From contig CAYRXT010000003.1 in assembly GCA_964428315.1 (NCBI GenBank), forward strand, positions 4,151-68,150: DNA of 64,000 nt. Reading direction: 5' to 3'. The stretch comes from an uncultured Planctomycetales bacterium (lineage in GTDB: Bacteria > Omnitrophota > Gorgyraeia > Zapsychrales > CAYRXT01). This document shows, one piece after another, positions 8,520-52,456 of the stretch. The notes below the pieces were generated by a model that had not been told where the DNA came from, made no database searches, and saw only the letters and a list, made by a program, of their open reading frames with translations. A program made the translations under genes and the position numbers. Numbering within the stretch: the first letter of the stretch is position 1; each line of letters begins with the position of its first letter.

Positions 8520-8523
<4 letters not shown>

Positions 8524-24484: not shown

Positions 24485-24488
24485 GGAG

Positions 24489-26234: not shown

Positions 26235-26245
26235 TACAAATTCCT

Positions 26246-31533: not shown

Positions 31534-31597
31534 TCTTTCCTCCCAATTAGGCAGTAAATCGAAACTTCGCTGCGCGGTTTGTACTTATAATGGCCCA

Positions 31598-33190
31598 TCA
31601 ACCTCTCCATTTACTGTCCCCCCTAGAATGACCGTACGCCATAGAATTCCTTCTACCGGGCAAACATGTCAATCGGCTGAAATTATTTTTGCCGACGTCC
31701 TCCACGTACTGTAAAAACTGGTTCTGTATGAGGGTTTTCTGTTGATGATAGGCCGCTAAAATCCGCCCGGGATAGACGGCTTTTAACTGCTCATTGTCCC
31801 TGGATTCGGCGAACGTCAAGGCCGGTCCCGCAGCAAAGGGCACGGTGGTATATTTCAGCATGTACAGATAACAAAACTTGGCCCGCAACCGCTGTTCGGT
31901 GCTCAGCCTGCGAGGAATAAACCCTTTCAAGACGGAAAAGTATTCTTCTTTGGTCCGGGGCTCTATGTTGAATCCGAGCCCGCTGAACGACGCCTCTCCC
32001 GCCAGAAGCGCGGGGATCCCCCGCAGGGCAGGCATCTCGACCCCCGGAGAGCCCAGGCAGGTCACGATCATGTCGGCCACATTCAAAACGGTCAAGGGCG
32101 TGATATCACTGTCACACGGCGCATAACGGACATGTCCCGGAGCCGTGCTCATGATTTGATTCATGTCAATGTCATGCGCAGGGTAATAAACATTGGCGGG
32201 ATGCTCCTTGAAAATCCAGTTCTTCGAAGTGTCTTTCACAGCAAACTCCAAGGTCTGCCTGAACCAGTCATAATAATCCCGGAAAATCATCCATTCAAAA
32301 TGTGAGTGGGGAAAATCGTTAAAACAATGGAGCATGACAAAGACAATCGGCCGGTGTTCCATTCCCATTTTTTTGAAAAACTCTTCTCGATTTTGTTGCT
32401 CGGGAATCTCATTATCCTCCTCCACCGGAAAGGCCCCCAGGAAGGGATTATTGGCCTGGCATATCATGTCCCGGAACTCTTCTTCTATTGTCCGGCTGAA
32501 ATTATTGACAGCGTGCTCCATTTCCTCAAAAGAGGGCTTCAAAGGATACTTGTAAACGTCCGGAAGGCCTTTGAATAACGATAGACAAATGATTCCATGG
32601 CCTCCTCCTTTCCAGTAAGCAGGGATGTTGTTCTGCAAGGCCACGCGCACAAGGGCCCCTTTATTGACCCCGACGTAGTGGGCCGTCAGGATGGCCTTGA
32701 TGTTCTCCGTTTTCAGCAGTCTTCTCGCCTGGAAGTCGCGGAAAAGCAGAGAATAGAATACAACGACCAACCGCGGATCGAAGCGGTGCAGTGTCGCGTA
32801 ACAGTAACGCGCCAGGTATCCGTCGTAAACACAATCCCCGTAAACAATCCCTTTATACCGGAAACTCAGAATCCGGTCGGAGAATACCGCGTAAGCCAAA
32901 TAAAAATAAAGCGCCCGCGAGAGAAACCCGAAAACCAGCCAAAGAGAGGGGCGCTCCCGGCGGATGAAAAGCGAGTTTCGTGAATAACTCCGCATCAGGG
33001 CCTCATCCGTGAAGTCTTCTTTCAGCCAGCCGATACGGTAATGTTTCGCGCGGGCCACAATCTTTGCCGCCACCGCGTTTGAATGGTTTATCAACACATT
33101 ATCCGAGGTCTCGACCAGAAGAACGGCGTCCTTTCCTGATTCGGGATAAGAGGCCCAAAATCGTCTGTTAGCGTCAATAAACTCAGTCAT
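31598..33190 (-). CDS. Capsule_synth (KpsS/KpsC/LpsZ-like) family protein, putative nonulosonic-acid/Kdo-type transferase
   Basis: ...PIVFVMLHCFNDFPH...NWIFKEHPANVYY... resembles the KpsS/KpsC ...Q..ND...KHHP core. Paralog of 39276..40895. Start set at M26, where the paralog alignment begins; the ORF track extends to 33265. Confidence 0.4.
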   Translation of the reverse strand: MTEFIDANRRFWASYPESGKDAVLLVETSDNVLINHSNAVAAKIVARAKHYRIGWLKEDFTDEALMRSYSRNSLFIRRERPSLWLVFGFLSRALYFYLAYAVFSDRILSFRYKGIVYGDCVYDGYLARYCYATLHRFDPRLVVVFYSLLFRDFQARRLLKTENIKAILTAHYVGVNKGALVRVALQNNIPAYWKGGGHGIICLSLFKGLPDVYKYPLKPSFEEMEHAVNNFSRTIEEEFRDMICQANNPFLGAFPVEEDNEIPEQQNREEFFKKMGMEHRPIVFVMLHCFNDFPHSHFEWMIFRDYYDWFRQTLEFAVKDTSKNWIFKEHPANVYYPAHDIDMNQIMSTAPGHVRYAPCDSDITPLTVLNVADMIVTCLGSPGVEMPALRGIPALLAGEASFSGLGFNIEPRTKEEYFSVLKGFIPRRLSTEQRLRAKFCYLYMLKYTTVPFAAGPALTFAESRDNEQLKAVYPGRILAAYHQQKTLIQNQFLQYVEDVGKNNFSRLTCLPGRRNSMAYGHSRGDSKWRG

Positions 33191-33234
33191 CTCATTGTGC
33201 GCCTTGAACGGACGACCTCCGGCCCCGTTCCGCC

Positions 33235-34140
33235 TTACATCTGGTCGTGTTGCGGTCTCAGCCATATTCCCTCTTCTGCATCTGTGCGCTCAAAGGTTTC
33301 CGGATCATACCGGCCGCGGCGCATCCGGCGCTGTTTGAGGCGTTCGCTGGGAGAAGGCGTCTTCTCTCCTGAACCCAGGGCTCCTTCAAGCGACCGGATT
33401 GTCCCGACCATCGAGCGGAACTCTTCCATGGTCATGGAGAAACCGTGATCCGGCCCCGGACCGCCCCTCTCGAAGGTGACATGCTTTTCGATGCAAGTCC
33501 CGCCCAAGGCGACCGCCGAGACGGGGACAAGATCCCCCGGCGTATGGTCCGAGATTCCGACCGGCAGGCCAAAAGTCTCTTTGAGCGTCAGCACGGCCCG
33601 CAGGTTCATCTCGTCAAACTTCGGCGGATACTGGCTGACGCAATGCAGAAGCGTAATATCTCCGGCGCCGGCCTCACGCAGCGTATCGAGAGCGTTCCGT
33701 ATGTCGTCCAGGCCGCTCGCGCCGGTCGACAGGATCACCTTTTTCTGTGTCCTTCCGACCGCCTCCAGGAGCGGCGAAAACGTGATATCACCCGCCGCGA
33801 TCTTGTAGGTTTTGACCCCCACCCGCTCCAGCAGGTCCACGGCCTTCAGAAAAAAAGGCGTCGAGATGAATTCGATGCCCGTCTGGTCGGCCGTCTTCTT
33901 CAGTTCGAAATGCCACTCCTCAGGCAGTTCGAGGCTGGAAAACTGACTGTACACCGGGTTACGCTTCCTTTCCCCGCCTTCCCAGACGAACGGCGCCACA
34001 AGTTTTTCCTTTTTCAGCGTCTGAAACTTGACCGCATCAGCCCCGGCCTCCTTGGCCGCGACGACATAAGCCTTTGCCTTTGAAAGATCGCCGTCATAAT
34101 TCGATCCCACCTCCGCAATGATCCGGACATGCTGTTTCAC
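33235..34140 (-). CDS. pseI: N-acylneuraminate/pseudaminic acid synthase family (NeuB/PseI-like), short C-terminus
   Basis: RIIAEVGSNYDGDLSKAKAYVVAAKEAGADAVKFQT is the NeuB TIM-barrel N-terminus. The C-terminal SAF/AFP-like domain looks truncated (ends ...GIWLRPQHDQM). Confidence 0.7.
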   Translation of the reverse strand: MKQHVRIIAEVGSNYDGDLSKAKAYVVAAKEAGADAVKFQTLKKEKLVAPFVWEGGERKRNPVYSQFSSLELPEEWHFELKKTADQTGIEFISTPFFLKAVDLLERVGVKTYKIAAGDITFSPLLEAVGRTQKKVILSTGASGLDDIRNALDTLREAGAGDITLLHCVSQYPPKFDEMNLRAVLTLKETFGLPVGISDHTPGDLVPVSAVALGGTCIEKHVTFERGGPGPDHGFSMTMEEFRSMVGTIRSLEGALGSGEKTPSPSERLKQRRMRRGRYDPETFERTDAEEGIWLRPQHDQM

Positions 34141-35189
34141 TGTTTGACTCCGCTTAGCGTCCCGATAAGGAGATCGCTCACACAGCCGGTTCCGTTCCCG
34201 TCGACCAATTGCCTCCCTCTCGCCGACATGGCCCGCCTGCGCTGTCCGTTATTCAGCAGGGACTTAACGGTGCGGACAATCTTCCGGCCGTCCAGCTGTT
34301 CGACGGCTCCAAGATAGACGGCGGTACCCATAGCGTGCCAGGCCTCGCAATTCGGTTTCTGATTGCCGGCGATTTGAATGATACAGGCGGGAACACCCAG
34401 GGCCGCGGCCTCGAACGACGTTATTCCCCCGGCGATCAAGGCCAGATCCGCGTCCGCCATGCATTCGGCCACGTCCGGCGTATCGATAAGAATCCGAACC
34501 CTCAATTCCGGATGCCTTTTCACCCATAACTCGACGGCTTCCCTTCCGGGATTGAGAGAACTCAAAAGGACAACGTATTCCATGCGGGTTTCCAGGGAAC
34601 TGAGGGCCTCTAAACATAAAAGGGCGGCTCCCCGGTCATCACCTCCTCCGAAGGTCAGAAGAATGCGTTCCGGCTTCCGCCGGCATGCGTACCGTGTCCT
34701 GGCCGCGGCGAATTCCGGACGAAGGAGGGCGTATTGCGGACCGACCAGCAACCGCGTTTCCCTTCTTCGCAGATACGGCCGGTAATCCTGTTCACTGAAT
34801 ACGGGACTGGCGTTGAAGACCCAGTCAGCCCAAAGGTCCTTGTGGGGTCTTCCGTCGAACTGCAGCCATCTCACCCCGGCCGAAAGAAGTTCCATTTGAT
34901 AGTCCGCGTCCGTGCGGTAATGGTCGACAACGGCCGCATCGATGTCCCATGTCCGAAAAAGCCCGGCCAGCCTTTGCGCATCTTCGAAAGGGTCTGTCCG
35001 CCAATCCATATGTTCCCACTGCCGCACGGTTTCGGCAAGGAGGCCTTCCAGCGCCATGTCCTCATCGCGGCACAAAAAGAATATCCCGGCGCCGTTGCGC
35101 CGGAGTTCACCGGCGAGCGCGAGACAGCGCCGCAAATGTCCTGTGCCCAGGGATGGAGAAACATCACAACGGAAAAGGAATCGTTTCAT
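34137..35189 (-). CDS. pseG: UDP-2,4-diacetamido-2,4,6-trideoxy-beta-L-altropyranose hydrolase (PseG-like, MurG-type GT-B)
   Basis: MKRFLFRCDVSPSLGTGHLRRCLALAGEL is the PseG N-terminal signature. About 350 aa. Confidence 0.65.
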   Translation of the reverse strand: MKRFLFRCDVSPSLGTGHLRRCLALAGELRRNGAGIFFLCRDEDMALEGLLAETVRQWEHMDWRTDPFEDAQRLAGLFRTWDIDAAVVDHYRTDADYQMELLSAGVRWLQFDGRPHKDLWADWVFNASPVFSEQDYRPYLRRRETRLLVGPQYALLRPEFAAARTRYACRRKPERILLTFGGGDDRGAALLCLEALSSLETRMEYVVLLSSLNPGREAVELWVKRHPELRVRILIDTPDVAECMADADLALIAGGITSFEAAALGVPACIIQIAGNQKPNCEAWHAMGTAVYLGAVEQLDGRKIVRTVKSLLNNGQRRRAMSARGRQLVDGNGTGCVSDLLIGTLSGVKQ

Positions 35190-36088
35190 TCCATTCTTTC
35201 TTTTTTCAGGAATTTCATCATGTTCATCTGATGATCAATAGCGAAATGACCTGATACCTTTTTGTTTTGGGGGACATCTTTTATAACAATACTACCCGCC
35301 ATGACCATTGCCCCCTTTCCGACGGTTACATATTCACGAATAACCGCGGAACTCCCAATCCAAGCCGCATCTCCGATGACGGCCTTGCGTGCCAAGACAC
35401 AATTATTGGAAATAACGCAGTTTTTGCCGATCTGCACTTCATGCCCAATACTTGACCTAATGCCAATGAGAGAATGATCTCCGATTGACGTTAAGAGTGT
35501 CGGATGAATCGAACGGGCGATAACGGCCTGGCTGAGAATTGTCACGTTACGCCCCACATGCACCCCTCCTCCATGTCGCACAGGATAAATGTCCCCATCC
35601 TCCTTCAGATAGAGCAATCCGTCTGTTCCGACAACCGCCCCCGCGTCAATTCTGGCATTATCACCGATGACGACCTCATCTTTGATGACGACATTCGCCT
35701 CAATCGTAACATTATTTCCGATCTTAGACTTCTTGGACAGGATAGCCGAAGGATGTATACAACAATTTTTCCCAACCCCATAAATAATATCTGACGGCAT
35801 GAGGTTATGACTCAGCAATTGATGATGGATGCGATAGAAACAGTTTCTTGGGTATTCGGCAACAACAACACCTTTTTTCGGGGCAACATCCTTAGAAAGA
35901 CTTTTTGTCGTCACAACACAACTGACCCGATCATTCTTGTTTGCCGCTTTAACATAAAAAATAGTGTCACAATAAACCAAGGTGCCGGCACAGGAAGTCT
36001 GCACATGCCCCAATGTCATAAACTGACCATCGCGGACGATTTCGGCTTTTGAAAAAAAATCTGATAACCGCATTTTTCTTGCCTTCAA
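35186..36088 (-). CDS. LpxD-like hexapeptide-repeat (left-handed beta-helix) N-acyltransferase
   Basis: Long run of [LIV]G.N..I hexapeptide repeats after a ~100-aa N-terminal domain, which is LpxD-like architecture. Immediately downstream of the ACP and the KAS III. Confidence 0.6.
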   Translation of the reverse strand: MKARKMRLSDFFSKAEIVRDGQFMTLGHVQTSCAGTLVYCDTIFYVKAANKNDRVSCVVTTKSLSKDVAPKKGVVVAEYPRNCFYRIHHQLLSHNLMPSDIIYGVGKNCCIHPSAILSKKSKIGNNVTIEANVVIKDEVVIGDNARIDAGAVVGTDGLLYLKEDGDIYPVRHGGGVHVGRNVTILSQAVIARSIHPTLLTSIGDHSLIGIRSSIGHEVQIGKNCVISNNCVLARKAVIGDAAWIGSSAVIREYVTVGKGAMVMAGSIVIKDVPQNKKVSGHFAIDHQMNMMKFLKKERME

Positions 36089-36342
36089 GTCGATGTCTTC
36101 TTGCCAGCCTCGGCCTTAACATACTCCATGATAGCATTCAATGAATTCAGCCTGTCGATGTCATTTTCGGGAATATCAGACAATCCAAATTTTTCCTGAA
36201 CATTCAAAAATAAAGTCATGACATCCAGAGAATCAATGCCGAGTTCACTTAGCCGGCGCTCCCAGTTCGCCTCATCGGCCAGCATGTCCGTTGATACAAA
36301 CTCTCCGACCATTTCCGCAATCTTTTGTTTAATGTCCTGCAT
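36085..36342 (-). CDS. acyl carrier protein (dedicated)
   Basis: 85 aa with ...LGIDSLDVMTL..., where the Ser of DSL is the phosphopantetheine attachment motif. Confidence 0.75.
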   Translation of the reverse strand: MQDIKQKIAEMVGEFVSTDMLADEANWERRLSELGIDSLDVMTLFLNVQEKFGLSDIPENDIDRLNSLNAIMEYVKAEAGKKTST

Positions 36343-36352
36343 AATCCTCTCC

Positions 36353-37279
36353 TTAGTTTTTTCTTGTTAACAGACCGCTTGCCCATGAAAGCCCAACACC
36401 AAAACCGCAGAGAACAACTTTTTCAATGTCATTACGCGATGCGTACTTCTCCAAAACTAACGGGATGGAAGAAGAAATCGTATTCCCGCATTCGCTCATC
36501 AGCAAAGGCACTTTTTCTTCCGGAAGGCTCATACGTTTGCGTAACCGATCGATGATATATTTGCTTCCTTGATGGAAAATAAACAGATCGATTTCATCCA
36601 AGCCCAGCCCTTCTTTTTCCAAGAGGCCCTGCACTTGGAGGGGCACCTCGACGGCCGAAAAATTGAAAATAGCCCGTCCATTCATATAAAGGGACTCTCT
36701 CCGGTTATGTAAAACTCCCGCTTCCTTTCCCCTGCTCGCAAAACGAAAGGTTTTCGGGGCCCATATCCCTTGTCCTTCCCGCAAAAATGTTACGGTCGCG
36801 GCGTCCCCGAATAACAAAGCAGTATTCTTCTCCAACGGATCAACCGTTTTCGAATACGGATCGGCCGTAAAGAGAAGCCCCTTTCTGAAACCGTGCGCCT
36901 CCATAAAGGCCTTAACGATGGATAACGTATACACATATCCCGAACACCCCAGGGAAATATCAAAGCAAGCGCATGTTTCAGGCAAGTCAAGCTTGCCGTG
37001 TACGACCGCTGATGTATGCGGGATGCCGTGGCCATCGGGGTTTTGCGTACAGACTACAAGGCATTCGATATCCATACCAGTATCTGTCGTTGCTCGCAGC
37101 CGCTCAAAGGCCTTCACACACAAATCCGACGTATCCTCTTCAAGGGCCTTCTGTGAAACCGCATGGACACCTAATTTATCCCTTATGAAATTATCGTCGA
37201 TTTCAAAAAGACCCTTGCGGTCAAAATTTGAAATTCTGTGTTCGGGAATATAGCTATTGATCGCGGCGATGATAATCAT
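36353..37279 (-). CDS. 3-oxoacyl-ACP synthase III (FabH-like KAS III)
   Basis: Catalytic Cys in ISLGCSGYVY, His in FHQGS and Asn in CGNTISSS. 308 aa. Confidence 0.75.
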   Translation of the reverse strand: MIIIAAINSYIPEHRISNFDRKGLFEIDDNFIRDKLGVHAVSQKALEEDTSDLCVKAFERLRATTDTGMDIECLVVCTQNPDGHGIPHTSAVVHGKLDLPETCACFDISLGCSGYVYTLSIVKAFMEAHGFRKGLLFTADPYSKTVDPLEKNTALLFGDAATVTFLREGQGIWAPKTFRFASRGKEAGVLHNRRESLYMNGRAIFNFSAVEVPLQVQGLLEKEGLGLDEIDLFIFHQGSKYIIDRLRKRMSLPEEKVPLLMSECGNTISSSIPLVLEKYASRNDIEKVVLCGFGVGLSWASGLLTRKN

Positions 37280-37887
37280 TTCAGAACTTGTGAGAAATAG
37301 ATATGCCCGATTATGCCCCCATCGACAATCACCAACGATTTTGTCATCCGGAAAGCGAAATTCTGCGCCAACCTGACCTCGAACTTAGTCTTATCGTCTT
37401 CTCTCAATAACCGGTTCAATTCAAGCCGCGTAAAAAGCCACTTTCCTTTGGCATTCGGAAAAAGCATCAAAAGGAGATGCTTGTTGATGGCGACCAGGAC
37501 CTCTATCGGATGGAAGGGCACCTCTTGGTGAATTTTGATGATCTTATCCTCGACATGTGAAACCTTGACAATATCATCTTCCGGATAGGGATAACGATCA
37601 ACAACGGGCTCGTCTGTCTCAACCAACCAACCCAAAAGGCCCTTTTCTCTGCCGGAAAAAGAGAATTCGGCACTCGGATGGGCGACAGAAGGCAGAGGCT
37701 CGCCGACTTCACCAAAGATAATCCGGCACTGATGACGTATTAATGCGTGCATGGCCATCTTAAATACTCCCGGCGACTGGTTTATTCTTGGCGCGATCAA
37801 CTCGGAAATCTCCTTGTACATGCATGGCCCGTGGACATACTCTCGTTTGCCTTTATAACGAAATTTCAGCATTTGTTCTTCCATCAA
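37276..37887 (-). CDS. hypothetical protein (no recognisable family)
   Basis: 203-aa ORF with coding-like composition, translationally coupled between the KAS III and the M28-like gene. No recognisable motif. Confidence 0.35.
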   Translation of the reverse strand: MMEEQMLKFRYKGKREYVHGPCMYKEISELIAPRINQSPGVFKMAMHALIRHQCRIIFGEVGEPLPSVAHPSAEFSFSGREKGLLGWLVETDEPVVDRYPYPEDDIVKVSHVEDKIIKIHQEVPFHPIEVLVAINKHLLLMLFPNAKGKWLFTRLELNRLLREDDKTKFEVRLAQNFAFRMTKSLVIVDGGIIGHIYFSQVLK

Positions 37888-37905
37888 AACCTCCAGATTT
37901 TTGGT

Positions 37906-40895: not shown

Positions 40896-41023
40896 AGGAA
40901 CAAACCTGTGGAGACACTCTTGCCACAGCTTCACGGCCCGGCACCGCGCCGCTCTCAAGACGGATGCGGGGGGCCAACGGCCTCCCCCTCTCTCCTCAGC
41001 ATGCCTGTTTGGACCTTTGGTTT

Positions 41024-43134: not shown

Positions 43135-43165
43135 CGATCAAATCTCTCATACACTCATCGGTGTC

Positions 43166-43891
43166 TTACCACTTGACTATCAGGATATCCTCACGCGTCT
43201 TGTTCATCGGCAACCCGTCTCTCTGGGGTAAAAGATACGTCTCACAGCCCATGCCGCGGTACCTCTGCAAAATGGAAAACACCACGCTCTCGTCGAATTC
43301 TCCCTCTTTAAAGGTATTCCATTCGACCTTCGGGGGTTCCGCGGTCTTCGCCCATTCCATGTGCAAACGCCTGCCGGCCTCCGAGCCGAGGAAGCGCCTC
43401 TTTTTCGTGATATTGGGCAGGTCTCCCAAAAGAAGCCGGCCACCGTTCTTCAAAAGCGAAACGGCCTTGTCCAGGAATCGGAACATGTTACCGTGGACAA
43501 AGACGATCTGGATCACGCTGTAAACGATGACATAATCGATGCCGTCCTTGTATTCTTCAATAAAGTCAGAACATATCGGAAACTCGCACGAGATTTTTTC
43601 AAGAAAGCTCTCATCGGGAAGCTGATCGAGCATCTCCTTGGAATCGATCAGGATAAGAGGATTCTTGTTGACCCGTGCGAAGTCTATCAGGTCGCGCGCC
43701 GGCGTACTGCATCCGCAGCCGATATCGCAGATGACGCCGCCCGGTTGGATATCCAGTTTGTCACGGACATCGGGAACAATATTCTTCTCTTTGTTCTCTG
43801 GCCCAACATGGATCTGCGCGCGTCCGACCTTTTCAAAGGCGCGCAGTTTTTCGTCCCTGGCTTTCCTGCGAAAATCGTCAAACGTCAGCAT
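43166..43891 (-). CDS. class I SAM-dependent methyltransferase
   Basis: VICDIGCGCS Gly-rich motif I and ...LKNGGRLLLGD... 241 aa. Confidence 0.6.
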   Translation of the reverse strand: MLTFDDFRRKARDEKLRAFEKVGRAQIHVGPENKEKNIVPDVRDKLDIQPGGVICDIGCGCSTPARDLIDFARVNKNPLILIDSKEMLDQLPDESFLEKISCEFPICSDFIEEYKDGIDYVIVYSVIQIVFVHGNMFRFLDKAVSLLKNGGRLLLGDLPNITKKRRFLGSEAGRRLHMEWAKTAEPPKVEWNTFKEGEFDESVVFSILQRYRGMGCETYLLPQRDGLPMNKTREDILIVKW

Positions 43892-44943: not shown

Positions 44944-46261
44944 AATGAACAGTTTTGTTCGATGACAGTTCTTTCTTGTTTTCGTAAACCTTACAGAAGG
45001 CACGAACAATATCTTTTATATCACTTTTTTTCAGTGGATAACGGCAAAGCCCGGTCGTTATCAACGCTTCCGCGTGCATCTTTTCGGCGACAGGACAGAT
45101 ACCCGGAGAATAGTCCACACGACCTTTATAATAAGGCGGCCGGAACGGATAGCCTTGCCGGCCGAGTGCGGTCTTTTTTTGATACATGGGTTCGAAATAA
45201 ATCGGCCGGACGTAGCCTTCGCCAAGGGGTATGCCTTCCGCCCTGACAGCTTTTACAAAAATACCGCGTGAAAAACCGGCAGTTTCTGCCTTCAATTTTA
45301 TGGGGAAAGAAAAATACACGTGACGGTTGCCCGGCCGAATTAAGGGTAATTCCAGTCCCGGCAATCCCGCTTTTTTCAAGCCGTCTCGCAAGGTGTCGGC
45401 CAATTCAATGCGGTATTCTGTCAAATACTCAAGCTTGTCGAACTGCGCAATACCCACTGCCGCTTCCAGTTCCGTCATTCGGTAATTCCAACCCAGCATA
45501 TTGACGATATCGTTCATCTTCATCTTTCCGACCACAACCTCTCCGTGGTTACGGATCAGACGCGCCTTCTCGGCGATCCTCGCATCATTTGTCATGATCA
45601 TGCCGCCCTCACCGGTCGTCATCGTCTTTTGCTGGTTAAAACTGAAAACACCGGCGGTGCCGATCGTTCCTACGTAGCGGCCTTTATAAGTTGCCGCCGG
45701 CGACTGCGCGCAGTCCTCGATAAGCGCCAGTCTGTACCGCCTTGCCAAGGTCTTGAGCCCGGACATATCGGCGGCCTGTCCGAAGAGATGCACCACAACA
45801 ATCGCCCTGGTGTATTTCGTAATCTTCTTTCTCACGCATTCGGGATCCAGACCGAAGATGTCCTCCTGTATATCGGCAAAAACCGGAATGCCGCCGGTCA
45901 TAACAATGGCGGAGGCCGAAGCGGACATCGTATAGGGCGTGACAATCACCTCGTCGCCGGGGCCGACCCCGGCGGCGGCCAGCGCGGCATGCAGACCAGC
46001 CGTCGCCGAATTGACCGCCACGGCATATTGTATTTCGAAATACCGGCAAAAGCGCCTCTCCAGTTCCCGAACCTTCGGTCCTCCGAGAAACGGCTCACCG
46101 GGCGAAGCCAGAAATCCGGACAAAATCCCGCTTTTCAGGACGTCCCTGACCTGGCGCAACTCCTCTTTGCCGAGGACAGGATGAGCGGAAAACGGTTTCA
46201 GTCGAACCTTTTTTCCCCCGAACAAGGCCAATGCCGGGCGTTTCTTAGCAGCTGAGCTCAT
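44927..46261 (-). CDS. DegT/DnrJ/EryC1/StrS family PLP sugar aminotransferase
   Basis: ...AVAVNSATAGLHAAL...VIVTPYTMSAS...FSFNQQKTMTTGEGG... places the conserved Lys in FNQQK. Confidence 0.8.
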   Translation of the reverse strand: MSSAAKKRPALALFGGKKVRLKPFSAHPVLGKEELRQVRDVLKSGILSGFLASPGEPFLGGPKVRELERRFCRYFEIQYAVAVNSATAGLHAALAAAGVGPGDEVIVTPYTMSASASAIVMTGGIPVFADIQEDIFGLDPECVRKKITKYTRAIVVVHLFGQAADMSGLKTLARRYRLALIEDCAQSPAATYKGRYVGTIGTAGVFSFNQQKTMTTGEGGMIMTNDARIAEKARLIRNHGEVVVGKMKMNDIVNMLGWNYRMTELEAAVGIAQFDKLEYLTEYRIELADTLRDGLKKAGLPGLELPLIRPGNRHVYFSFPIKLKAETAGFSRGIFVKAVRAEGIPLGEGYVRPIYFEPMYQKKTALGRQGYPFRPPYYKGRVDYSPGICPVAEKMHAEALITTGLCRYPLKKSDIKDIVRAFCKVYENKKELSSNKTVHYEYLV

Positions 46262-47253
46262 CTCAATCTGATCCTCCTTTGCTTCCGGGCCGAAAGGACC
46301 AAGGCCTCGACAACCCTTAGTGATTTTAAAGCATCACGCCCCGGTGAAAGGGGTTTCTCTCTTTTCTCCAGACACCGGATGATATGATCGACTCCCTGCT
46401 CCAGGGAGATCGGCCCGCGGCGATTCTTAAAGGGCAAGCCCCCTCTTGCCGAAAGTCTTCTGAGTTTCAATAACGGGTTGATATCAGACGACTCAAAATA
46501 TTCAACCGTCTGGTCAAACCGGACGCGCGCGCGGGATCCCACGATATCGATTTCAAGAATGATAAAATTTCTGTCGTCGCAGGCTTTTAACGCGACATCG
46601 GGTCCCCCTCGAAATCGAATAACCCCGTCGAGATTCGGATCACCCCTCCTGCGCGAAACGTTCCAGCTGGGATGAGCCAAAACCTCAACCGGCTCTCCGA
46701 AAAGAAATCTTAAATAATCCACAACATGGATCCCCGTGTTAAAAATGCCTCGGGTGTAGTAGACATTCACCTGCTGAATGCGCCCCACTTCCAGACGGCG
46801 GATCTTCGCAGCAAGCTCACGGTGAAAGGGATCAAAACGACGCTGATGGTTGACCATTAACAAAACCCGTTTACGGGCGCAGGCCTTCACGATAATCTCG
46901 GCGTCGCGTGAAATCGAAGCAATCGGCTTTTCGCAAAAAATCGCCTTAACCGGATAGTGGAGCACGGCCCTGATGACATCCAGATGAGTTGGCGACGGCG
47001 TACATACACTCACAATATCCACCGCTTCGTTTTCCATCATTTTCCCAATGTCCTTATAGGCGGAGGGCACGCGCCACTTTTTTTGAAAGGCCCGGCGTCT
47101 GGAGGCGTTGGGTTCGCAAACAGCTGCCAGTTCCGTGCGCAGATGCTTCGTGTACGCGCCGGCATGGGTGAGGACGAAAGGTCCACTGGTACCGGTGTCA
47201 AACCCGCCTGCGATCCGTCCGCAGCCAATGATGCCTGTCTTATAGATTCTCAT
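46258..47253 (-). CDS. Gfo/Idh/MocA family NAD-dependent sugar oxidoreductase (WbpB-like)
   Basis: MRIYKTGIIGCGRIAGG... Rossmann N-terminus with ...EKPIA... Co-occurs with a DegT aminotransferase, as in oxidise-then-transaminate pairs. Confidence 0.7.
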   Translation of the reverse strand: MRIYKTGIIGCGRIAGGFDTGTSGPFVLTHAGAYTKHLRTELAAVCEPNASRRRAFQKKWRVPSAYKDIGKMMENEAVDIVSVCTPSPTHLDVIRAVLHYPVKAIFCEKPIASISRDAEIIVKACARKRVLLMVNHQRRFDPFHRELAAKIRRLEVGRIQQVNVYYTRGIFNTGIHVVDYLRFLFGEPVEVLAHPSWNVSRRRGDPNLDGVIRFRGGPDVALKACDDRNFIILEIDIVGSRARVRFDQTVEYFESSDINPLLKLRRLSARGGLPFKNRRGPISLEQGVDHIIRCLEKREKPLSPGRDALKSLRVVEALVLSARKQRRIRLR

Positions 47254-47792
47254 TTCCTCCGGTATTCCCTGCGCAGGATGCTCATCCGCAGGGCGTCATA
47301 AAAACGGTTATTGCGAAAAATCTCATCCCGCAGGACGCCCTCTTTGACAAAACCAGCCTTCTCGTAAGTCTTCACGGCAGCCAAATAGTCGGCGTTCACC
47401 CCCAGAAATATCTTATGGAAGTTCAGCTTCTCGAATCCGTACTGGACCATCAGCCTGGTCGCTTCGGTGGCAAAGCCCTTGTTCCATTTTGTTTTTTCAC
47501 CGATGAAGATCCTGTACTCGGCGGCATGCGTGACGGCGCGGATCCCGTAAAAACCGCACCATCCGACAGGCCTGGCGGTCTTCTTGTCCACGATCGTCAT
47601 GGGAATGGTTTTCGTGTCGCGTATCTCCTTCTGCCACTGTTCGTCCAAGACTTCAAGATGCGTCGGCCTTTCCCCCATGATCATAAATTTCGTTACCTCG
47701 GGGTCATTAAGCCAGTGCAAGATAAATGAAAGGTCCTCCCGGGTCGTTCCGCGCAGATCCAACCTCTTCCCCCCCAAAAATGGTGAATTCAT
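47250..47792 (-). CDS. GNAT family N-acetyltransferase (PseH-like candidate)
   Basis: RimJ/RimL-like GNAT core: ...VGWCGFYGI...WNKGFATEATRLMVQYGFEKLNFHKIFLGVNADYLAAVKTYEKAGF... Start at M17 abuts the upstream stop. Confidence 0.6.
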   Translation of the reverse strand: MNSPFLGGKRLDLRGTTREDLSFILHWLNDPEVTKFMIMGERPTHLEVLDEQWQKEIRDTKTIPMTIVDKKTARPVGWCGFYGIRAVTHAAEYRIFIGEKTKWNKGFATEATRLMVQYGFEKLNFHKIFLGVNADYLAAVKTYEKAGFVKEGVLRDEIFRNNRFYDALRMSILRREYRRK

Positions 47793-48559
47793 GAATCGGC
47801 CTCCTTTTTTGTGCTCGACGGCCTCAGACGCGTGTTCCATCGCTCATTGATTCTTTTAAGTTCCGGCCGCCTGTCCAGCAGCCGGCAAATATCTTCCAGA
47901 AGAAACATCTCCTTTTGCGGATAAAGGGCCTCGATGATCTGCCCGATGAGTTGATAATCCTCTTCGTAATCAAGAGTCAAACGAAGATCCGAAAGATCCC
48001 AGTCACAGCGCGGTCCGTCAACGCGGAACCTCTGCGGATGCCTCAAAACATAAGCCCAGGCATCGGCCCGCCACCTCTTTTTTTTCACTTCCCTATCGAG
48101 CCTCTCCAAGGTTGAAAGGGGCATCACGGCCACATCCATGCCATCGGGAAAACCCCGTGCACTTCCCGTATTCACATAGTCCAACTCCGACTCTCGATCA
48201 CAATAAAAGCGAATCGCTGAATCAATGATACGCGGATCCGTTAACGGACAATCAGCGCCGATCCGCACAATAACATTCCCCTGAAATCGCCTTGCTGCTT
48301 CCAGGTTGCGACTGATAAGATCCGCTTCACTGCCGGCATAAAAGTCGACCCCTTCCGCCTGAGCAAATTCCACAATGGGCGTGTTGGCAGGCGTATCAGC
48401 GGTTGCGATAACAATTTTGTCGATGAATTTGGCATGAGCCATTCGCCGGTATTGATACCATAACAAAGCCCTGTCCAGCACCCTCATAAGCGACTTTCCT
48501 CTAAGTCGGCTCGAGTTAAATCGCGCCTGAATAATTCCTAATCGCATATCCGAACCCAT
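47789..48559 (-). CDS. CMP-sugar cytidylyltransferase (SpsF/NeuA/PseF family)
   Basis: LGIIQARFNSSRLRGKSL is the CTP_transf_3 P-loop-like N-terminus. 256 aa. Confidence 0.6.
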   Translation of the reverse strand: MGSDMRLGIIQARFNSSRLRGKSLMRVLDRALLWYQYRRMAHAKFIDKIVIATADTPANTPIVEFAQAEGVDFYAGSEADLISRNLEAARRFQGNVIVRIGADCPLTDPRIIDSAIRFYCDRESELDYVNTGSARGFPDGMDVAVMPLSTLERLDREVKKKRWRADAWAYVLRHPQRFRVDGPRCDWDLSDLRLTLDYEEDYQLIGQIIEALYPQKEMFLLEDICRLLDRRPELKRINERWNTRLRPSSTKKEADS

Positions 48560-50292
48560 CGTTTTAGCCTGTTGGACTGCTTCATCTTGTGCAGAATGTG
48601 TTGGATGCGGATACCTTTTTCTAAATCAATCGGGGAATCGGCGTCCCCGTTGACACACTGCACAAAGCATGCGATCTCGCGTTTATATATAGCGTCGATC
48701 TCCTTGGCCCTGCAAAACACTTGCCATCGGTTCTTTTTCACTTCATAGACCTTAACAACACCTTTCAAAAGATCACAAACAATCGCACCCTTTTCACCGA
48801 TTACATCCATTGTCCGCGTTGTGGGTCTCATAATGTAATCCGCGTGGCACTGCATAATAAAATTTTCATGGAATTTAATCAACAACTCGGCAGTATCTTC
48901 CACATCCGTTTTCAAAGAGGTGCGCCTATCCGCCCAACAAAATATTTCTTTCACCTCTCCGAACAAAAACCCTGCATTGAACACGTGATGGCTCAATGTG
49001 TCCAAAATCACGCCGCCTCCAAGGATCCTCCGAGCCCCGTACTCTGTGCTATAATCCTGCGTGGGGTGCCTGTCCGGAAGATAAGAACCGGCAAATGTCT
49101 TGGCTGAAATCAGAGGACCGATAATCCCTGATTGTAATATTTTTTTAACAGTGTTAAGACACTGGCTGAACGCGTTATTATAACCTATAAAAGTAACCAG
49201 CCGCTTCTTTCCGACAATATCGAGAAGACTGTCCAGGCCCCTCATATTATGGGAAAGCGGCTTTTCGATAAAAAGATGACAGCCTTGCTTCGCGGCTTTC
49301 AAGGCGTAGGGGACATGCAGAGAAGTCGGCGTCGTAATGAATACGGCGTCAGGTTTTGATTCCCAGCAGGCCTTCAACTCCGTCAAACATGCAATGTTGG
49401 AAGATATCTTTCTAACCTCAACAAATCGTGAAGGATCAATATCGTAAGCCAAAAGACGTCCGGCCTTCTGGGCCAGCAAATTCTTCAAGTGCCTCTGTCC
49501 GATGGATCCGCACCCGATGACAAGGAACGTCTTGATCCTTCTTTTGGCCTTCTGGATAAAATCCGGATTTCTCTTCTGCGCGGACATCTCTTTAAACATC
49601 GCTTTATGCCGGGAATAATACCGGACGATGTCCTTCAAGCCGAAATTTTCGTTGGCCTTCTTCATGTCCGCGACCATAATGTTGATGGTCTTGAGGTCAA
49701 CGGGATAATCAACAGTCAAATGGATATGGGAATAGTCTTTGTTCAACCGCAATCTGTTGATCTTGAACTCCTTCTGCTGTCTCATCCACCTGTTGGGGAA
49801 TTCGCGGAAAAAAGGATCCTCCAGATTCTTGGCGAGATAACGCAGCAGTGCCCCGGAATAGATTTCCGCGTTGAGCCCGAAGGGAAATGTCAGCGGGATG
49901 TTATTGGTTGTGTACGGCTTTTTGTTCTTCAGGCTTTTGAGAACCATGCGGTCGATCCAGACAGGATCAATCAAAGGACAGTCTCCCCACACGCGCACCA
50001 CCCAGTCCGCCTTAAACTTCCGGCACGCGCCGTCGAGGCGGCCGACGATGTCCTCGTTCGCGCCCCGGGAATACGGGATCTTTTTCCTCTTCAGAAAGGC
50101 CGCCAGCTTATCGTCGCTGGAACGGCGGGTCGTCGCGACACAAACCTGGTCGACCAGGCGGCACTTTTTCAGCCGCCCAGCAATGAATTCGACCATCGGT
50201 TTGCCGCCGATCTTCTTAAGCGGCTTGCCGGGAAGACGGCTGGACCCCATCCTGGACTGAATGAGCGCTATGACCTTTGCCTTCTTCTTCAT
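48538..50292 (-). CDS. fusion protein: SpsF-like cytidylyltransferase (N-terminal) plus Gfo/Idh/MocA oxidoreductase (C-terminal)
   Basis: N-terminus KVIALIQSRMGSSRLPGKPL (cytidylyltransferase). C-terminal half IKTFLVIGCGSIGQRHL...IEKPLS... (Gfo/Idh/MocA Rossmann plus EKP motif). Confidence 0.65.
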   Translation of the reverse strand: MKKKAKVIALIQSRMGSSRLPGKPLKKIGGKPMVEFIAGRLKKCRLVDQVCVATTRRSSDDKLAAFLKRKKIPYSRGANEDIVGRLDGACRKFKADWVVRVWGDCPLIDPVWIDRMVLKSLKNKKPYTTNNIPLTFPFGLNAEIYSGALLRYLAKNLEDPFFREFPNRWMRQQKEFKINRLRLNKDYSHIHLTVDYPVDLKTINIMVADMKKANENFGLKDIVRYYSRHKAMFKEMSAQKRNPDFIQKAKRRIKTFLVIGCGSIGQRHLKNLLAQKAGRLLAYDIDPSRFVEVRKISSNIACLTELKACWESKPDAVFITTPTSLHVPYALKAAKQGCHLFIEKPLSHNMRGLDSLLDIVGKKRLVTFIGYNNAFSQCLNTVKKILQSGIIGPLISAKTFAGSYLPDRHPTQDYSTEYGARRILGGGVILDTLSHHVFNAGFLFGEVKEIFCWADRRTSLKTDVEDTAELLIKFHENFIMQCHADYIMRPTTRTMDVIGEKGAIVCDLLKGVVKVYEVKKNRWQVFCRAKEIDAIYKREIACFVQCVNGDADSPIDLEKGIRIQHILHKMKQSNRLKRWVRICD

Positions 50293-51464
50293 GAACTTTT
50301 TAACTCCTTCCTCAAACTCTTGATGACATGACGAACCTGCCTGGTGTCCATCCGGGGATGCAACGGGATTGAGACCGTCCCGGCATAATGGCCCTCGGCA
50401 CAGGGAAAGTCCTTGGGGGACAAACGGAAATATTTCCTATAAAACGGCTGACGGTAAAGCGGTATGTAATGGACCTGTGTCTGGACTCCCTTTCTCTGGA
50501 GCCGTTCCATAAACTTTTTCCTCGTCGTTTTCCTTTTCGCGAAATCAACACGCAAGACGTACAGATGCCAGCCGTGCCTTTTCCCCTGCCCTCCGTCGTC
50601 CGGCAGGACCAGTCCGTCAATATCCTGTAAGGCCTCCGAATAGGCCTTCGCGATCTCTGTCCGCTTCGCGATAAAGCCAACCGCCTTTTTGAGCTGGCTC
50701 AGCCCCAGTGCGCACTGAACATCGGTGATGCGGTAATTGAACCCCAGCTCCCGCATCTCGTGATACCACGACCCAACCGAATGCGCCATGCCGGGGGTCT
50801 TGGTAACGCCGTGCGTCCGCAAAGCGCGAAGGCGTTCATAAAAGCCTTTATCATTCGTCGTGATCATGCCGCCTTCACCGGTGGTGATGGTCTTCAGGGG
50901 ATGGAAGCTGAAAACCGTCATGGCCGAGTGCCGGCAGGACCCGACCTTAACCCGGCGCCCCTGATGTCTGTACGCCGCGCCGAGCGCGTGGCAGGCATCC
51001 TCGATGACAGTAAGTTTCCCGCGTTTTGCCGCCGCGGCGATGCGCGGCATATCACAGGGCAGTCCGGCGAAATGGACGGGCAGGACCGCCTTTGTCCTTT
51101 GGTTTATCCTTTTTTCCAGTTCTCCGGGATCGATGTTTCCCGTCCGCAAATCGATATCGGCGAACACCGGACGCCCGCCGGCATAGACAACGGCATTGGC
51201 CGTGGCCATGAAGGTGACAGGCGAGGTGACGGCCTCATCGCCTTTTTTGAGGCCTGCCGCCAGGCAGGCCAGATGGAGCGCCGCCGTCCCGCTCGAGACC
51301 GCCACGGCATAACGGCTCCCGCAATAGCGCGCGAAGGCCTTTTCAAATTCTGCGACCTTCGGCCCCTGTGTCAGCCAGTCTGATTTAAGGACCCGGACGA
51401 CTTCCCGGATATCGTGATCATCAATCGACTGCCTTCCATAGGTAATGCCTTTCTTTGTCCCCAT
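50289..51464 (-). CDS. pseC: UDP-4-amino-4,6-dideoxy-N-acetyl-beta-L-altrosamine transaminase (PseC-like DegT aminotransferase)
   Basis: ITYGRQSIDDHDIREVVRVLKSDWLTQGPKVAEFEKAFARYCGSRYAVAVSSGTAALH is the PseC-type N-terminus. The Lys is in ...FSFHPLKTITTGEGG. Confidence 0.75.
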   Translation of the reverse strand: MGTKKGITYGRQSIDDHDIREVVRVLKSDWLTQGPKVAEFEKAFARYCGSRYAVAVSSGTAALHLACLAAGLKKGDEAVTSPVTFMATANAVVYAGGRPVFADIDLRTGNIDPGELEKRINQRTKAVLPVHFAGLPCDMPRIAAAAKRGKLTVIEDACHALGAAYRHQGRRVKVGSCRHSAMTVFSFHPLKTITTGEGGMITTNDKGFYERLRALRTHGVTKTPGMAHSVGSWYHEMRELGFNYRITDVQCALGLSQLKKAVGFIAKRTEIAKAYSEALQDIDGLVLPDDGGQGKRHGWHLYVLRVDFAKRKTTRKKFMERLQRKGVQTQVHYIPLYRQPFYRKYFRLSPKDFPCAEGHYAGTVSIPLHPRMDTRQVRHVIKSLRKELKSS

Positions 51465-51466
51465 CC

Positions 51467-52432
51467 TTATTCTTCCTCTTTTGCGATCTTCTGCAATGCC
51501 TCGACAGACAACCATTGCGTGTTGTTGTCACTGCGGTATCCCTCAAAATGCTCGTCCAGAGGCCTGCCTCCGTTTTTGCGTTCCTTGTGGCGGACGACAA
51601 ACGGATACGTGATGAAACGGTCTTCATACTCATACGTGTAGATGCCGTCGTCTTTGGTCACGAGGATCTCGTGAAGTTTTTCCCCGGCGCGGATTCCGAT
51701 AATGTCCTGTTTGCATTCCGGGCAGATGGCGCGCGCCAGATCGGTAATCTTCATGCTGGGGATCTTGGGGATAAACACCTCGCCTCCCTGCATGTCGTCC
51801 ATACATTTCATGACGAATTCAACGCCCCGCTGGAGGGTGATCCAGAAACGCGTCATCCGCTCGTCCGTGATGGGCACCGCGCCCTTTTGGCGGCATTCCA
51901 CGAAAAACGGCACCACGCTTCCCCGCGAACCGAAGACGTTGCCGTAACGGGCCACGCTGAATTTCGTCCCAAAAGGAGAATAATTGTTGGCCGCCACGAA
52001 CATCTTTTCCATGCACAGCTTCGTCGCCCCGTAGAGGTTGATGGGATTCGCAGCCTTGTCCGTGCTCAGGGCGATCAGCTTTTTCACCCCGCAGTCTATG
52101 GCCGTGTTGATCACGTTCTCCGCGCCGATCACGTTGGTCTTGACGGCCTCGAACGGGTTGTATTCCGCCGTCGGGACGATCTTCAGGGCCGCGGCATGGA
52201 CAACGATGTCTACGCCGTTGAACGCCCGTCGAAGCCGCTCGGGATCCCTCACGTCACCGATGAAATAGCGGATGGCGGGGTGAGCGAAATGCTGGCTCAT
52301 CTCGTATTGCTTCATCTCGTCGCGGCTGAAGATGATGAGTTTTTTCGGCCGATGCCTCGAGAGCAGGGTCTCGGTAAATTTTTTGCCGAACGACCCCGTA
52401 CCGCCCGTAACCAAAATGGTCTTTCCGTCCAT
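51467..52432 (-). CDS. pseB: UDP-N-acetylglucosamine 4,6-dehydratase (inverting), PseB/FlaA1-like
   Basis: ILVTGGTGSFGKKF, ...STDKAANPINLYGATK... About 320 aa, PseB/CapD short form. Confidence 0.8.
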   Translation of the reverse strand: MDGKTILVTGGTGSFGKKFTETLLSRHRPKKLIIFSRDEMKQYEMSQHFAHPAIRYFIGDVRDPERLRRAFNGVDIVVHAAALKIVPTAEYNPFEAVKTNVIGAENVINTAIDCGVKKLIALSTDKAANPINLYGATKLCMEKMFVAANNYSPFGTKFSVARYGNVFGSRGSVVPFFVECRQKGAVPITDERMTRFWITLQRGVEFVMKCMDDMQGGEVFIPKIPSMKITDLARAICPECKQDIIGIRAGEKLHEILVTKDDGIYTYEYEDRFITYPFVVRHKERKNGGRPLDEHFEGYRSDNNTQWLSVEALQKIAKEEE

Positions 52433-52456
52433 GCGTTCTCCTTCAGTTCTTTTCCG

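Follow-up and report, generated by a model that had tools for sequence, protein, structure and literature searches.

A pseudaminic-acid-type gene block with an embedded acyl carrier protein cassette in a bacterial surface-polysaccharide island

The window analysed here, 64,000 nt of contig CAYRXT010000003.1 from an uncultured bacterium known as a metagenome-assembled genome (MAG), carries between positions 31598 and 52432 a single minus-strand block of 20 open reading frames (ORFs). The block encodes enzymes of a pseudaminic acid (Pse)-type pathway and, embedded among them, a four-gene cassette for a β-ketoacyl-acyl carrier protein synthase III (KAS III), a dedicated acyl carrier protein (ACP), an LpxA/LpxD-like left-handed β-helix (LbH) acyltransferase and a predicted double hot-dog protein of 203 aa, designated U203 (Table 1). 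All 19 junctions within the block measure at most 31 nt, eight of them being 4-nt overlaps and one a 1-nt overlap, and the run of minus-strand genes continues without a break across 18–56 kb of the window. The initial annotation, made from the letters alone, had described a contiguous, translationally coupled block, and this description holds, with every gene it named recovered at its place on the minus strand. Ten window proteins looked up by exact sequence each fall into singleton clusters. Two paralogous ORFs without Pfam match, here called U583 and U555, had been left undescribed, and the first gene of the block, encoding an ABC exporter, lies beyond the range considered at that stage. The exporter gene is separated from pseB by 24 nt and has a 177-nt gap on its upstream side. 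Scanning of 36–55.5 kb for promoters and terminators revealed a promoter-like match at 54380–54352, upstream of the ABC gene, and otherwise just weak consensus matches within coding sequence.

Table 1. Features of the gene block and of the surrounding window. Positions refer to the window; scores are in bits, followed by the model cut-off where one applies.
Position	Strand	Product	Family evidence
52457–54277	-	ABC exporter, fused transmembrane and nucleotide-binding domains (MsbA/PglK/HepA-like)	PF00005 115
51467–52432	-	PseB, inverting UDP-GlcNAc 4,6-dehydratase/5-epimerase	TIGR03589 498.2 (cut-off 407.75)
50289–51515	-	PseC, C4 aminotransferase	TIGR03588 475.4 (cut-off 423.5)
48538–50292	-	Cytidylyltransferase (CTP_transf_3)–Gfo/Idh/MocA oxidoreductase fusion, 584 aa	
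47789–48559	-	Second cytidylyltransferase (CTP_transf_3)	PF02348 60.5
47250–47840	-	GNAT N-acetyltransferase, SpeG/Acetyltransf_3 type	PF13302 78.7
46258–47253	-	Gfo/Idh/MocA oxidoreductase	PF01408 79.6
44927–46261	-	DegT2, second DegT-family sugar aminotransferase	PF01041 317
43885–45009	-	FemAB-like (Acetyltransf_6) acyl/aminoacyl transferase	PF13480 32.5 (cut-off 22)
43166–43891	-	Possible S-adenosylmethionine (SAM) methyltransferase, 241 aa	PF08242 21.3 (cut-off 30), E 4.6e-4
41854–43134	-	Class III aminotransferase (glutamate-1-semialdehyde-aminomutase-like, pyridoxal phosphate)	PF00202 183.8
41024–41854	-	AAC(3)/Antibiotic_NAT-fold N-acyltransferase	PF02522 90.7
39276–41027	-	U583, 583 aa, distant KpsC/KpsS-like (Capsule_synth-related)	no Pfam match of its own
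37906–39279	-	DUF4910/DUF2172/M28-like metallohydrolase, C-terminal winged helix-turn-helix	PF16254 247.9
37276–37887	-	U203, predicted double hot-dog acyl-thioester enzyme, 203 aa, first gene of the cassette	
36353–37279	-	KAS III (FabH-like) condensing enzyme	PF08545, PF08541
36085–36342	-	Dedicated ACP, 85 aa	PF00550 34.4 (cut-off 20.8)
35186–36088	-	LpxA/LpxD-like LbH acyltransferase	LpxD 125, NeuD 104, LpxA 97
34137–35189	-	PseG, UDP-sugar hydrolase	TIGR03590 184.5 (cut-off 153.55)
33235–34140	-	NeuB301, NeuB-family synthase, 301 aa	PF03102 272.5
31598–33265	-	U555, paralogue of U583, 555 aa	27% identical to U583
26246–31533	-	CDP-glucose branch, complete route	
19105–21534	-	Wzy_C protein, 809 aa	Wzy_C, E 7e-4 (weak)
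18116–19108	-	LegB-like NAD-dependent 4,6-dehydratase	TIGR04180 459 (slightly under cut-off 475)
17401–18252	-	Sugar-1-phosphate nucleotidyltransferase	
16484–17404	-	Short-chain dehydrogenase/reductase (SDR)	
9964–11433		Polyprenyl glycosylphosphotransferase (Bac_transf, initiating)	
8520–9845	-	Wzy_C protein, 441 aa	Wzy_C
4321–6387	-	Wzy_C protein, 688 aa	Wzy_C

Pse enzymes and the acylation cassette

Three of the six canonical Pse enzymes, namely PseB, PseC and PseG, are recognized at equivalog level, and the minimal PseBCHGIF route put forward initially is confirmed to this extent, while for PseH, PseI and PseF it comes down to family-level matches. As the inverting PseB, PseC and PseG all pass their equivalog cut-offs, the route is of the Pse (L-altro) type, and by equivalog assignment the product of PseC is UDP-4-amino-4,6-dideoxy-β-L-AltNAc.

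The only NeuB-family synthase in the window, NeuB301, scores below both relevant models, PseI (TIGR03586, 250 versus 340 bits) and NeuB (288 versus 400 bits). Among solved structures it most closely matches the pseudaminic acid synthase 8h2c (E 1e-48), of which residues 17–302 are covered. Since this alignment ends at residue 302 of 349, NeuB301 is without the C-terminal SAF domain. A SAF domain lost to a frameshift was considered and rejected, as the three frames past the stop show no SAF-like continuation. NeuB301 is 62–65% identical to SAF-less NeuB proteins encoded next to the LbH gene in the loci L002, L003 and L010 (loci labelled in this way are contigs or genomes encoding relatives of window proteins). 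These synthases form a subfamily of 301–306 aa that travels with the LbH cassette, and L002 encodes a SAF-less NeuB plus a normal one with SAF domain (10905–11825 and 4658–5653). A NeuB of 290 aa is present in the PDB (6ncs), and Shewanella SfmA, likewise a 290-aa NeuB, is required for flagellin modification (PMC3765264).

Two CTP_transf_3 proteins may account for sugar activation. In the larger one, a cytidylyltransferase domain (PF02348, residues 8–130) is followed by a Gfo/Idh/MocA oxidoreductase (PF01408/PF22725/PF02894, residues 256–581); the fusion partners are adjacent separate genes in L004 and L085. The second protein is 34–37% identical to the products of CTP_transf_3 genes of L004, L006, L008 and L010. 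At E ≤ 1e-5, the PseF equivalog was recovered for neither cytidylyltransferase; of the named families, KdsB subfamilies match best, under cut-off. Judging from the domains present, NeuB301 together with both CTP_transf_3 enzymes can complete the route to a CMP-sugar. The acetyltransferase that had been called PseH-like retains this label at family level only: it fails the PseH model (TIGR03585, 53.7 bits versus a cut-off of 93.1), its nearest solved structures are SpeG spermidine acetyltransferases (E 3e-21), and no PseH structure matched it at E ≤ 1e-3. It may act as a PseH analogue or, alternatively, acetylate a second introduced amine.

The cassette lies between the DUF4910 and pseG genes, with 4-nt overlaps tying it to PseG on the LbH side and KAS III to U203. 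Its three proteins of recognizable family were present as initially annotated. KAS III possesses the complete triad C112-H236-N266 and matches FabH structures with E 2e-51, yet it stays below the FabH equivalog cut-offs (NF006829, 195.6 versus 249 bits) and is for this reason regarded as a paralogue rather than as the housekeeping FabH. The ACP carries an intact DSL serine (S38) and scores under the AcpP equivalog cut-offs. The LbH protein combines the left-handed β-helix fold with a histidine, H216, that aligns with the catalytic His of LpxA and LpxD, and its best structural matches are these two acyl-ACP enzymes. It remains under the cut-offs for LpxD (TIGR01853, 114.5 versus 242.5 bits; NF002060, 125 versus 207 bits) and likewise under those for NeuD and LpxA. 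At its N-terminus it has a distinct α/β domain of ~100 aa; the uridine-binding domain of LpxD (PF04613) is absent from the Pfam matches of LbH and its close relatives, whereas true LpxD proteins listed alongside carry it. The database gene call for LbH starts at 36073 and yields 295 aa. Homology searching delineated a compact, nearly entirely metagenomic family of ~45 clusters at 40% identity or above, with bona fide LpxD proteins appearing under ~30% identity. Members of the LbH subfamily occur also in bacteria expected to lack lipid A, e.g. Clostridium. No lpxA, lpxB, fabZ, fabD or fabG gene is found near the ACP, KAS III and LbH genes.

U203, listed initially as a protein of unknown function, is in fact the fourth conserved member of the cassette and has a predicted double hot-dog fold (pLDDT 73, pTM 0.74). 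No sequence match was obtained in Pfam, NCBIfam or the PDB, even with a profile of 30 sequences. Foldseek matches of the model comprise TesB, the dehydratase and product-template domains of polyketide synthases (PKS) and the acyl-ACP thioesterases FatA and FatB, all of which bind acyl thioesters. Among 1.84 billion clusters at 50% identity, the U203 family has 1374 representatives at E ≤ 1e-3. They are stand-alone proteins of ~200 aa without Pfam model and without a solved sequence relative. Residues R14, Y16, G19, E102, K135, W149 and G193 are invariant and E89 is nearly so; because there is no invariant His in the family, U203 would not be a canonical His/Asp dehydratase.

Recurrence of the cassette in other genomes

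To follow the cassette beyond the window, genomes were scanned for LbH relatives with the narrower of two alignments (A2), the wider one (A1) being too diverse, and a local hidden Markov model census was compiled of 81 non-redundant LbH-family loci, in which companions were counted within 6 kb on the same strand. The order U203-KAS III-ACP-LbH directly beside PseG/NeuB recurs in six sister loci: L002 (an NCBI assembly), L004/L007 (Mariprofundaceae), L005 (binned Thermoplasmata), L006 (Rhodocyclales), L008 (Zetaproteobacteria) and L010 (Pseudomonadota). Five of them are MAGs and one is a metagenome bin, and identity to the window amounts to 36–62% per cassette protein. Altogether, ACP, KAS III and hot-dog genes are all present near LbH in 11 of the 81 loci, i.e. 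in these six Pse-linked loci, which share the gene order of the window, and in five non-Pse loci with the order LbH-U203-KAS III-ACP (Desulfopila, three Rhodanobacteraceae MAGs and Terriglobales). In a further four, LbH is accompanied by the hot-dog gene only. Throughout the census the ACP gene abuts either the LbH or the KAS III gene, and a DegT gene is found within 3 kb on the same strand of LbH in 36 of the 81 loci, directly flanking it in 14.

These loci show a tight genetic linkage of a condensing enzyme, a carrier and an LpxA/D-type transferase, both with each other and with Pse genes. From the adjoining ACP and KAS III genes in the 11 loci we infer acyl-ACP as the donor of LbH, and the overall distribution points to a portable cassette that would acylate sugar amines generated by DegT enzymes. 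In the Desulfopila sp. IMCC35008 chromosome (L026, 4584–7669), the genes are arranged as DegT-LbH-hot-dog-KAS III-ACP-GT2-EamA-like, which is an Arn-like layout. Genes for an IS66-family and a DDE transposase stand just upstream of this cassette block, consistent with a mobile cassette. The Thermoplasmata contig (L005, JAUSPR010000032.1, 3,994 bp) bears the cassette with PseG, its LbH and KAS III being 54% and 60% identical to the window proteins; the placement could be a binning error or reflect transfer into archaea.

Tailoring genes and the proposed product

Between the cassette and the upstream Pse genes lie further enzymes. DegT2, the Gfo/Idh/MocA oxidoreductase, the FemAB-like protein, the class III aminotransferase and the AAC(3)-like protein, all of which had been named initially, are present according to Pfam. 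DegT2 reaches 235 bits against PseC and 212 bits against LegC, both under cut-off, and its gene is joined to that of the oxidoreductase by a 4-nt overlap. A CTP_transf_3-Gfo-DegT-acyltransferase module recurs in L004 and L085, and cytidylyltransferase, GNAT, Gfo/Idh/MocA and DegT2 genes recur in other orders in L004, L006, L008, L010 and L085. The FemAB-like protein scores 70.6 bits against TIGR04421 (cut-off 250); its database gene call starts at 44943 and gives 352 aa. For the neighbouring ORF, annotated as a SAM methyltransferase, the ORF itself is confirmed and the assignment is weak, as PF08242 stays under its cut-off; NCBIfam provided no match. The PDB matches of the AAC(3)-like protein are AAC(3) structures and FrbF.

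The class III aminotransferase (NF004856, 445.8 versus 486 bits) has K254 in a GK motif. Homologues occur at every Pse-linked cassette locus with enough flank and at no non-Pse cassette locus. Amination of 3-oxoacyl-ACP to a β-aminoacyl chain by this enzyme was therefore judged unlikely: it co-occurs with Pse genes and not with the cassette. Group I flagellin islands of Aeromonas, which have no ACP, also list a class III aminotransferase (PMC7874193).

The protein initially termed M28-peptidase-like has an M28 core, and the metal-ligand motifs are kept (H194, D198, E230, D303/E304, H331). Besides PF16254 it matches PF09940 (83.7 bits), PF04389 (26.4 bits) and PDB entry 3k9t (435 aa, E 1e-78). 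By way of a shared family description (PMC3068675) and of 3k9t, it probably belongs to the family of Campylobacter jejuni Cj1295, for which a role at N5 of Pse is published, making it a putative nonulosonate N-deacetylase. Close DUF4910 homologues sit in nonulosonate loci; no Campylobacter proteins are among the best 120 matches. In Pseudodesulfovibrio hydrargyri (L086, GCA_001874525.1, 4887–14561), a different acyl module is found beside NeuB, with the order HMGL-like, AMP-ligase-cyclase fusion, ACP, Antibiotic_NAT, DUF4910, Asn-synthase-like, HisH and HisF. The last three we take to resemble the acetamidino genes pseA/hisH/hisF of C. jejuni.

The paralogues U583 and U555 may be the transferases of the block. 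U583 has homologues in L085 (52% identity) and in L006 and L010 (36–37%), and U555 matches the same proteins in L006, L010 and L085 as well as in L086. With a profile of eight family members, KpsC accounts for four of the five best PDB matches (E 0.02–0.9); two of the eight match PF05159 at 1e-7, the window proteins themselves having no Pfam match, and a distant relative in Pseudodesulfovibrio carries the Pfam domain Capsule_synth. These matches weakly suggest that U583 and U555 are putative CMP-nonulosonate glycosyltransferases.

We propose, at a probability of roughly 0.6, that the block serves synthesis and transfer of a heavily N-decorated Pse-type nonulosonic acid for a surface polysaccharide, with the ACP cassette supplying one of the decorations. 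Beyond gene content, this account is an inference from MAG sequence. The product would most likely be a CMP-Pse derivative in which one amine bears a short acyl chain delivered by the ACP, N5 is re-acylated and a third amino group may be present. In this scheme, KAS III would condense a short acyl-CoA with malonate on the dedicated ACP to give a 3-oxoacyl-ACP, in the simplest case acetoacetyl-ACP; the chain should be short because KAS III alone only starts chains and no elongating KAS is present. U203 may process or gate the 3-oxoacyl thioester, and LbH would move the acyl chain, or its processed form, from ACP onto an amino group of a sugar. As acceptor, the PseC product is the strongest candidate, since the LbH family is tied to DegT enzymes and LbH abuts PseG. 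The PseC-made 4-amine, which becomes N7 of Pse, would then be the most likely site, and LbH would replace or parallel PseH. For a 3-hydroxyacyl group, the chain would have to be reduced by an enzyme from outside the cassette, i.e. a Gfo/Idh/MocA protein of the window or FabG of the host, and in the sister loci the aldo-keto reductase.

The remaining enzymes can be accommodated as follows. Cytidylyltransferase, Gfo/Idh/MocA oxidoreductase, DegT2 and GNAT may install an extra acetamido group by oxidation, transamination and acetylation, whereby Gfo/Idh/MocA would make the keto group for amination by DegT2. This would probably occur at the level of the CMP-sugar; that cytidylyltransferase and oxidoreductase are fused is a hint that the sugar is oxidized in its CMP-activated form. 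In Tenacibaculum maritimum, a 5-acetamido-7-(3-hydroxybutyramido)-8-amino nonulosonic acid occurs naturally. In line with the Cj1295 hypothesis, the DUF4910 protein may deacetylate N5, which the AAC(3)-like enzyme would then acylate anew; that further groups are added by the class III aminotransferase, the FemAB-like protein and the weak methyltransferase candidate is a guess. Finally, U583 and U555 would act as the sugar transferases, with the ABC exporter moving the product. The exporter (304 bits versus HepA and 280 bits versus MsbA, both under cut-off) is a probable flippase or exporter of a lipid-linked glycan.

Precedents exist for several parts of this scheme. In Pseudomonas syringae pv. 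tabaci, the viosamine island comprises vioA (DegT), vioS (KAS III), acp, vioB (LbH), vioR (ketoreductase), vioM (methyltransferase) and vioT, and vioB, vioR and vioM knockouts combined with mass spectrometry revealed that it yields N-(3-hydroxybutanoyl)-2-O-methylviosamine, an acylated 4-amino-6-deoxy sugar, on flagellin; homologues are orfA–orfG of the flagellin glycosylation island of P. aeruginosa PAK (PMC3927599). The window glycan locus likewise unites DegT, a dedicated ACP, KAS III, LbH and a possible methyltransferase. However, as compared by published description, the viosamine system acts on dTDP-viosamine rather than on a Pse precursor, uses a short LbH enzyme (VioB, 213 aa) rather than a ~300-aa LpxA/D-like one, has the ketoreductase VioR where the window cassette has a double hot-dog protein, and targets flagellin instead of standing in a polysaccharide context. 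In Flavobacterium psychrophilum, wfpC–wfpG encode two KAS enzymes, an ACP, a ketoreductase and an LbH protein, which by prediction assemble a 3,5-dihydroxyhexanoyl group on this ACP for attachment to UDP-Qui2NAc4N (PMC6519341), the D-gluco counterpart of the PseC product. Private ACP, KAS and LbH are thus shared with the window, whereas the PglD-like acyltransferase, the two condensing enzymes with a reductase, the absence of a hot-dog gene and the bacillosamine-type sugar set this system, itself a prediction, apart.

Carrier proteins are also known from Pse loci proper. In C. jejuni, the Pse locus carries an ACP gene for glycosylation (PMC3749442), and Cj1295, a proposed N5-deacetylase, is needed for Pse5(2,3-di-O-methylglyceroyl)7Ac (PMC3068675). 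As in the window, pseB and pseC are accompanied there by the aminopeptidase-like Cj1295, an N-acetyltransferase (Cj1296/7) and an ACP, but the context is flagellar, with Maf transferases, and the homology of the DUF4910 protein to Cj1295 is drawn from the family description and 3k9t. The C. jejuni locus also includes fabH2, an FkbH-like gene and acpP3. The polar-flagellin islands of Aeromonas group II contain fatty-acid genes between pseBC and pseFGHI, and a lipidated or acylated glycan has been suggested (PMC7874193); they differ by encoding ACP, 3-oxoacyl-ACP reductase, AMP-ligase, LuxE and LuxC and neither KAS III, LbH nor hot-dog protein, and by being flagellar. From LpxA and LpxD, in turn, the window LbH is set apart by scores under the family cut-offs, a different N-terminal domain, the lack of a lipid A context and its partnership with a KAS III able to start only short chains.

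Several observations weigh against the proposed ACP-dependent N-acylation. The cassette encodes no ketoreductase, there is no adh_short gene in 31.6–54.3 kb, and the window lacks the aldo-keto reductase that each of the five sister loci with sufficient flank encodes. The top structural match of LbH, LpxA, is an O-acyltransferase, and LbH scores under every NCBIfam cut-off. U203 has no invariant His, so that a canonical dehydratase is not at hand, and its model is of moderate confidence. The GNAT may be the real PseH, and the KpsC link of U583 and U555 is weak (E 0.02). Moreover, where the second amination takes place and what the FemAB-like, class III and methyltransferase proteins do are guesses. 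Finally, in 66 of the 81 LbH-family loci ACP, KAS III and hot-dog genes are all missing from the vicinity, for which reason the wider LbH family may use acyl-CoA.

The latter count also favours the best surviving alternative, which we regard as unlikely. Here, LbH would be an acetyl- or acyl-CoA-dependent substitute for PseH, whereas ACP, KAS III and hot-dog protein would serve an N5 exchange by the AAC(3)-like and DUF4910 enzymes, as proposed for Cj1295–Cj1304 of C. jejuni. The locus of P. hydrargyri, where an AMP-ligase-ACP-Antibiotic_NAT-DUF4910 string occurs without any LbH, fits this arrangement, and Cj1295 is genetically tied to N5 acyl exchange (PMC3068675). However, in the six sister Pse loci the cassette is intact, including LbH, though DUF4910 and AAC(3) are absent. 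The invariable position of the ACP gene next to LbH or KAS III and the structural similarity of LbH to the acyl-ACP enzymes LpxA and LpxD likewise argue for an acyl-ACP-dependent LbH.

Less credible still is a function of LbH as an LpxA-like O-acyltransferase that esterifies a hydroxyl group of the nucleotide sugar or of Pse (O4/O8) with the ACP-borne chain. Pse derivatives bearing O-acetyl groups, e.g. Pse5Am7Ac8OAc, are known from nature. Yet the frequent company of DegT genes, including the order DegT then LbH in L026, speaks for an amine as acceptor, and the published analogues are N-acylations (PMC3927599, PMC6519341). That ACP, KAS III and LbH represent a displaced or paralogous lipid A/fatty-acid operon that came to lie in the Pse cluster by chance, a possibility raised in the initial annotation, is effectively refuted: LpxD and LpxA are the best named families of LbH and KAS III resembles FabH, but all three proteins are under equivalog cut-offs, PF04613 and a lipid A or fatty-acid gene context are missing, 4-nt overlaps connect the genes to PseG and U203, and the same four genes recur with Pse in six loci.

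Thus, acylation of amino sugars with a dedicated ACP is already known, and here it is attached to pseudaminic acid. The initial annotation had predicted a nonulosonic acid with an ACP-delivered acyl chain and called such an N-acylation of Pse/Leg-type sugars undescribed. Synteny bears out a dedicated trio on a Pse route, and the pathway is indeed undescribed for the Pse scaffold with an LpxD-type enzyme, but the claim of novelty was too strong in view of the viosamine island, wfpC–wfpG and the ACPs in Pse loci of Aeromonas and C. jejuni. New are a ~300-aa LpxA/D-type LbH enzyme with its own N-terminal domain on a Pse scaffold, a hot-dog family without Pfam model in place of the ketoreductase, and a NeuB without SAF domain. 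Pse5Ac7Hb and Pse5Hb7Fm are known natural sugars; among the papers found, none describes how enzymes attach acyl chains of 3-hydroxybutanoyl or greater length to Pse or Leg, and a search for ACP or KAS III together with nonulosonic acids yielded lipid A papers only.

A more far-reaching version is conceivable, though we hold it with considerable doubt. The cassette would then be an unrecognised mobile sugar-acylation machine derived from lipid A acyltransferases, spread horizontally, in which the hot-dog proteins, as a new enzyme family of ~1,000 clusters, perform a new reaction on 3-oxoacyl-ACP and the SAF-less NeuB of Pse loci has co-evolved to accept a bulky N-acyl substrate. Combined with the modules for oxidation/transamination and for deacetylation/re-acylation, it would lead in the window to a triamino nonulosonic acid so far unseen in nature, whose three N-acyl groups all differ.

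Among surface antigens and as targets of phages and the immune system, nonulosonic acids are of major importance, and their N-acyl groups set antibody recognition. One antibody, for instance, recognizes Pse5Ac7Fm and Pse5Ac7Ac but not Pse5Hb7Fm. If the proposed function is true, the portable ACP-dependent cassette would provide a testable route to 3-hydroxybutanoyl or longer acyl groups on nonulosonic acids, a genome-mining marker for acylated nonulosonic acids and a set of enzymes with which Pse analogues could be made chemoenzymatically. An orphan family of ~1,000 clusters and a lipid-A-like acyltransferase subfamily would thereby also gain a function. The value lies mainly in annotation and enzymology, and the surprise to a specialist would be moderate.

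Neighbouring glycan genes

The entire window is a surface-polysaccharide island. In addition to the initiating polyprenyl glycosylphosphotransferase, it encodes a WecG-type transferase, several family 2 and family 4 glycosyltransferases (GT2 and GT4) and GDP-mannose dehydratases; flagellar genes are absent from the window. Three separate proteins of this one island carry Wzy_C, a domain of O-antigen ligases, polymerases and O-oligosaccharyltransferases.

The CDP-glucose branch directly downstream of the block comprises glucose-1-phosphate cytidylyltransferase (343 versus a cut-off of 300), CDP-glucose 4,6-dehydratase (450 versus 278) and an RmlC-like epimerase (169 versus 156), together with a TylC3-type C-methyltransferase, an SDR reductase and a CmcI-type O-methyltransferase. 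From this gene set, the same glycan is predicted to contain a 6-deoxyhexose that is O-methylated and C-methyl-branched. In L004, the first three genes of the branch likewise stand after the Pse block. Further downstream, the LegB-like gene is accompanied by the sugar-1-phosphate nucleotidyltransferase and SDR genes. A full legionaminic acid pathway was rejected, because a LegG-type epimerase and a second synthase are absent from the window.

Long ORFs are also present on the plus strand at 51455–52471 (338 aa), opposite pseB, and at 44089–45246 (385 aa), opposite the FemAB-like and DegT2 genes; both are probably shadow ORFs. The G+C content is 46–48% at 24000–32000 and 36000–40000 as compared to 53–57% in the rest of the window, and these dips suggest a mosaic origin of the glycan island.

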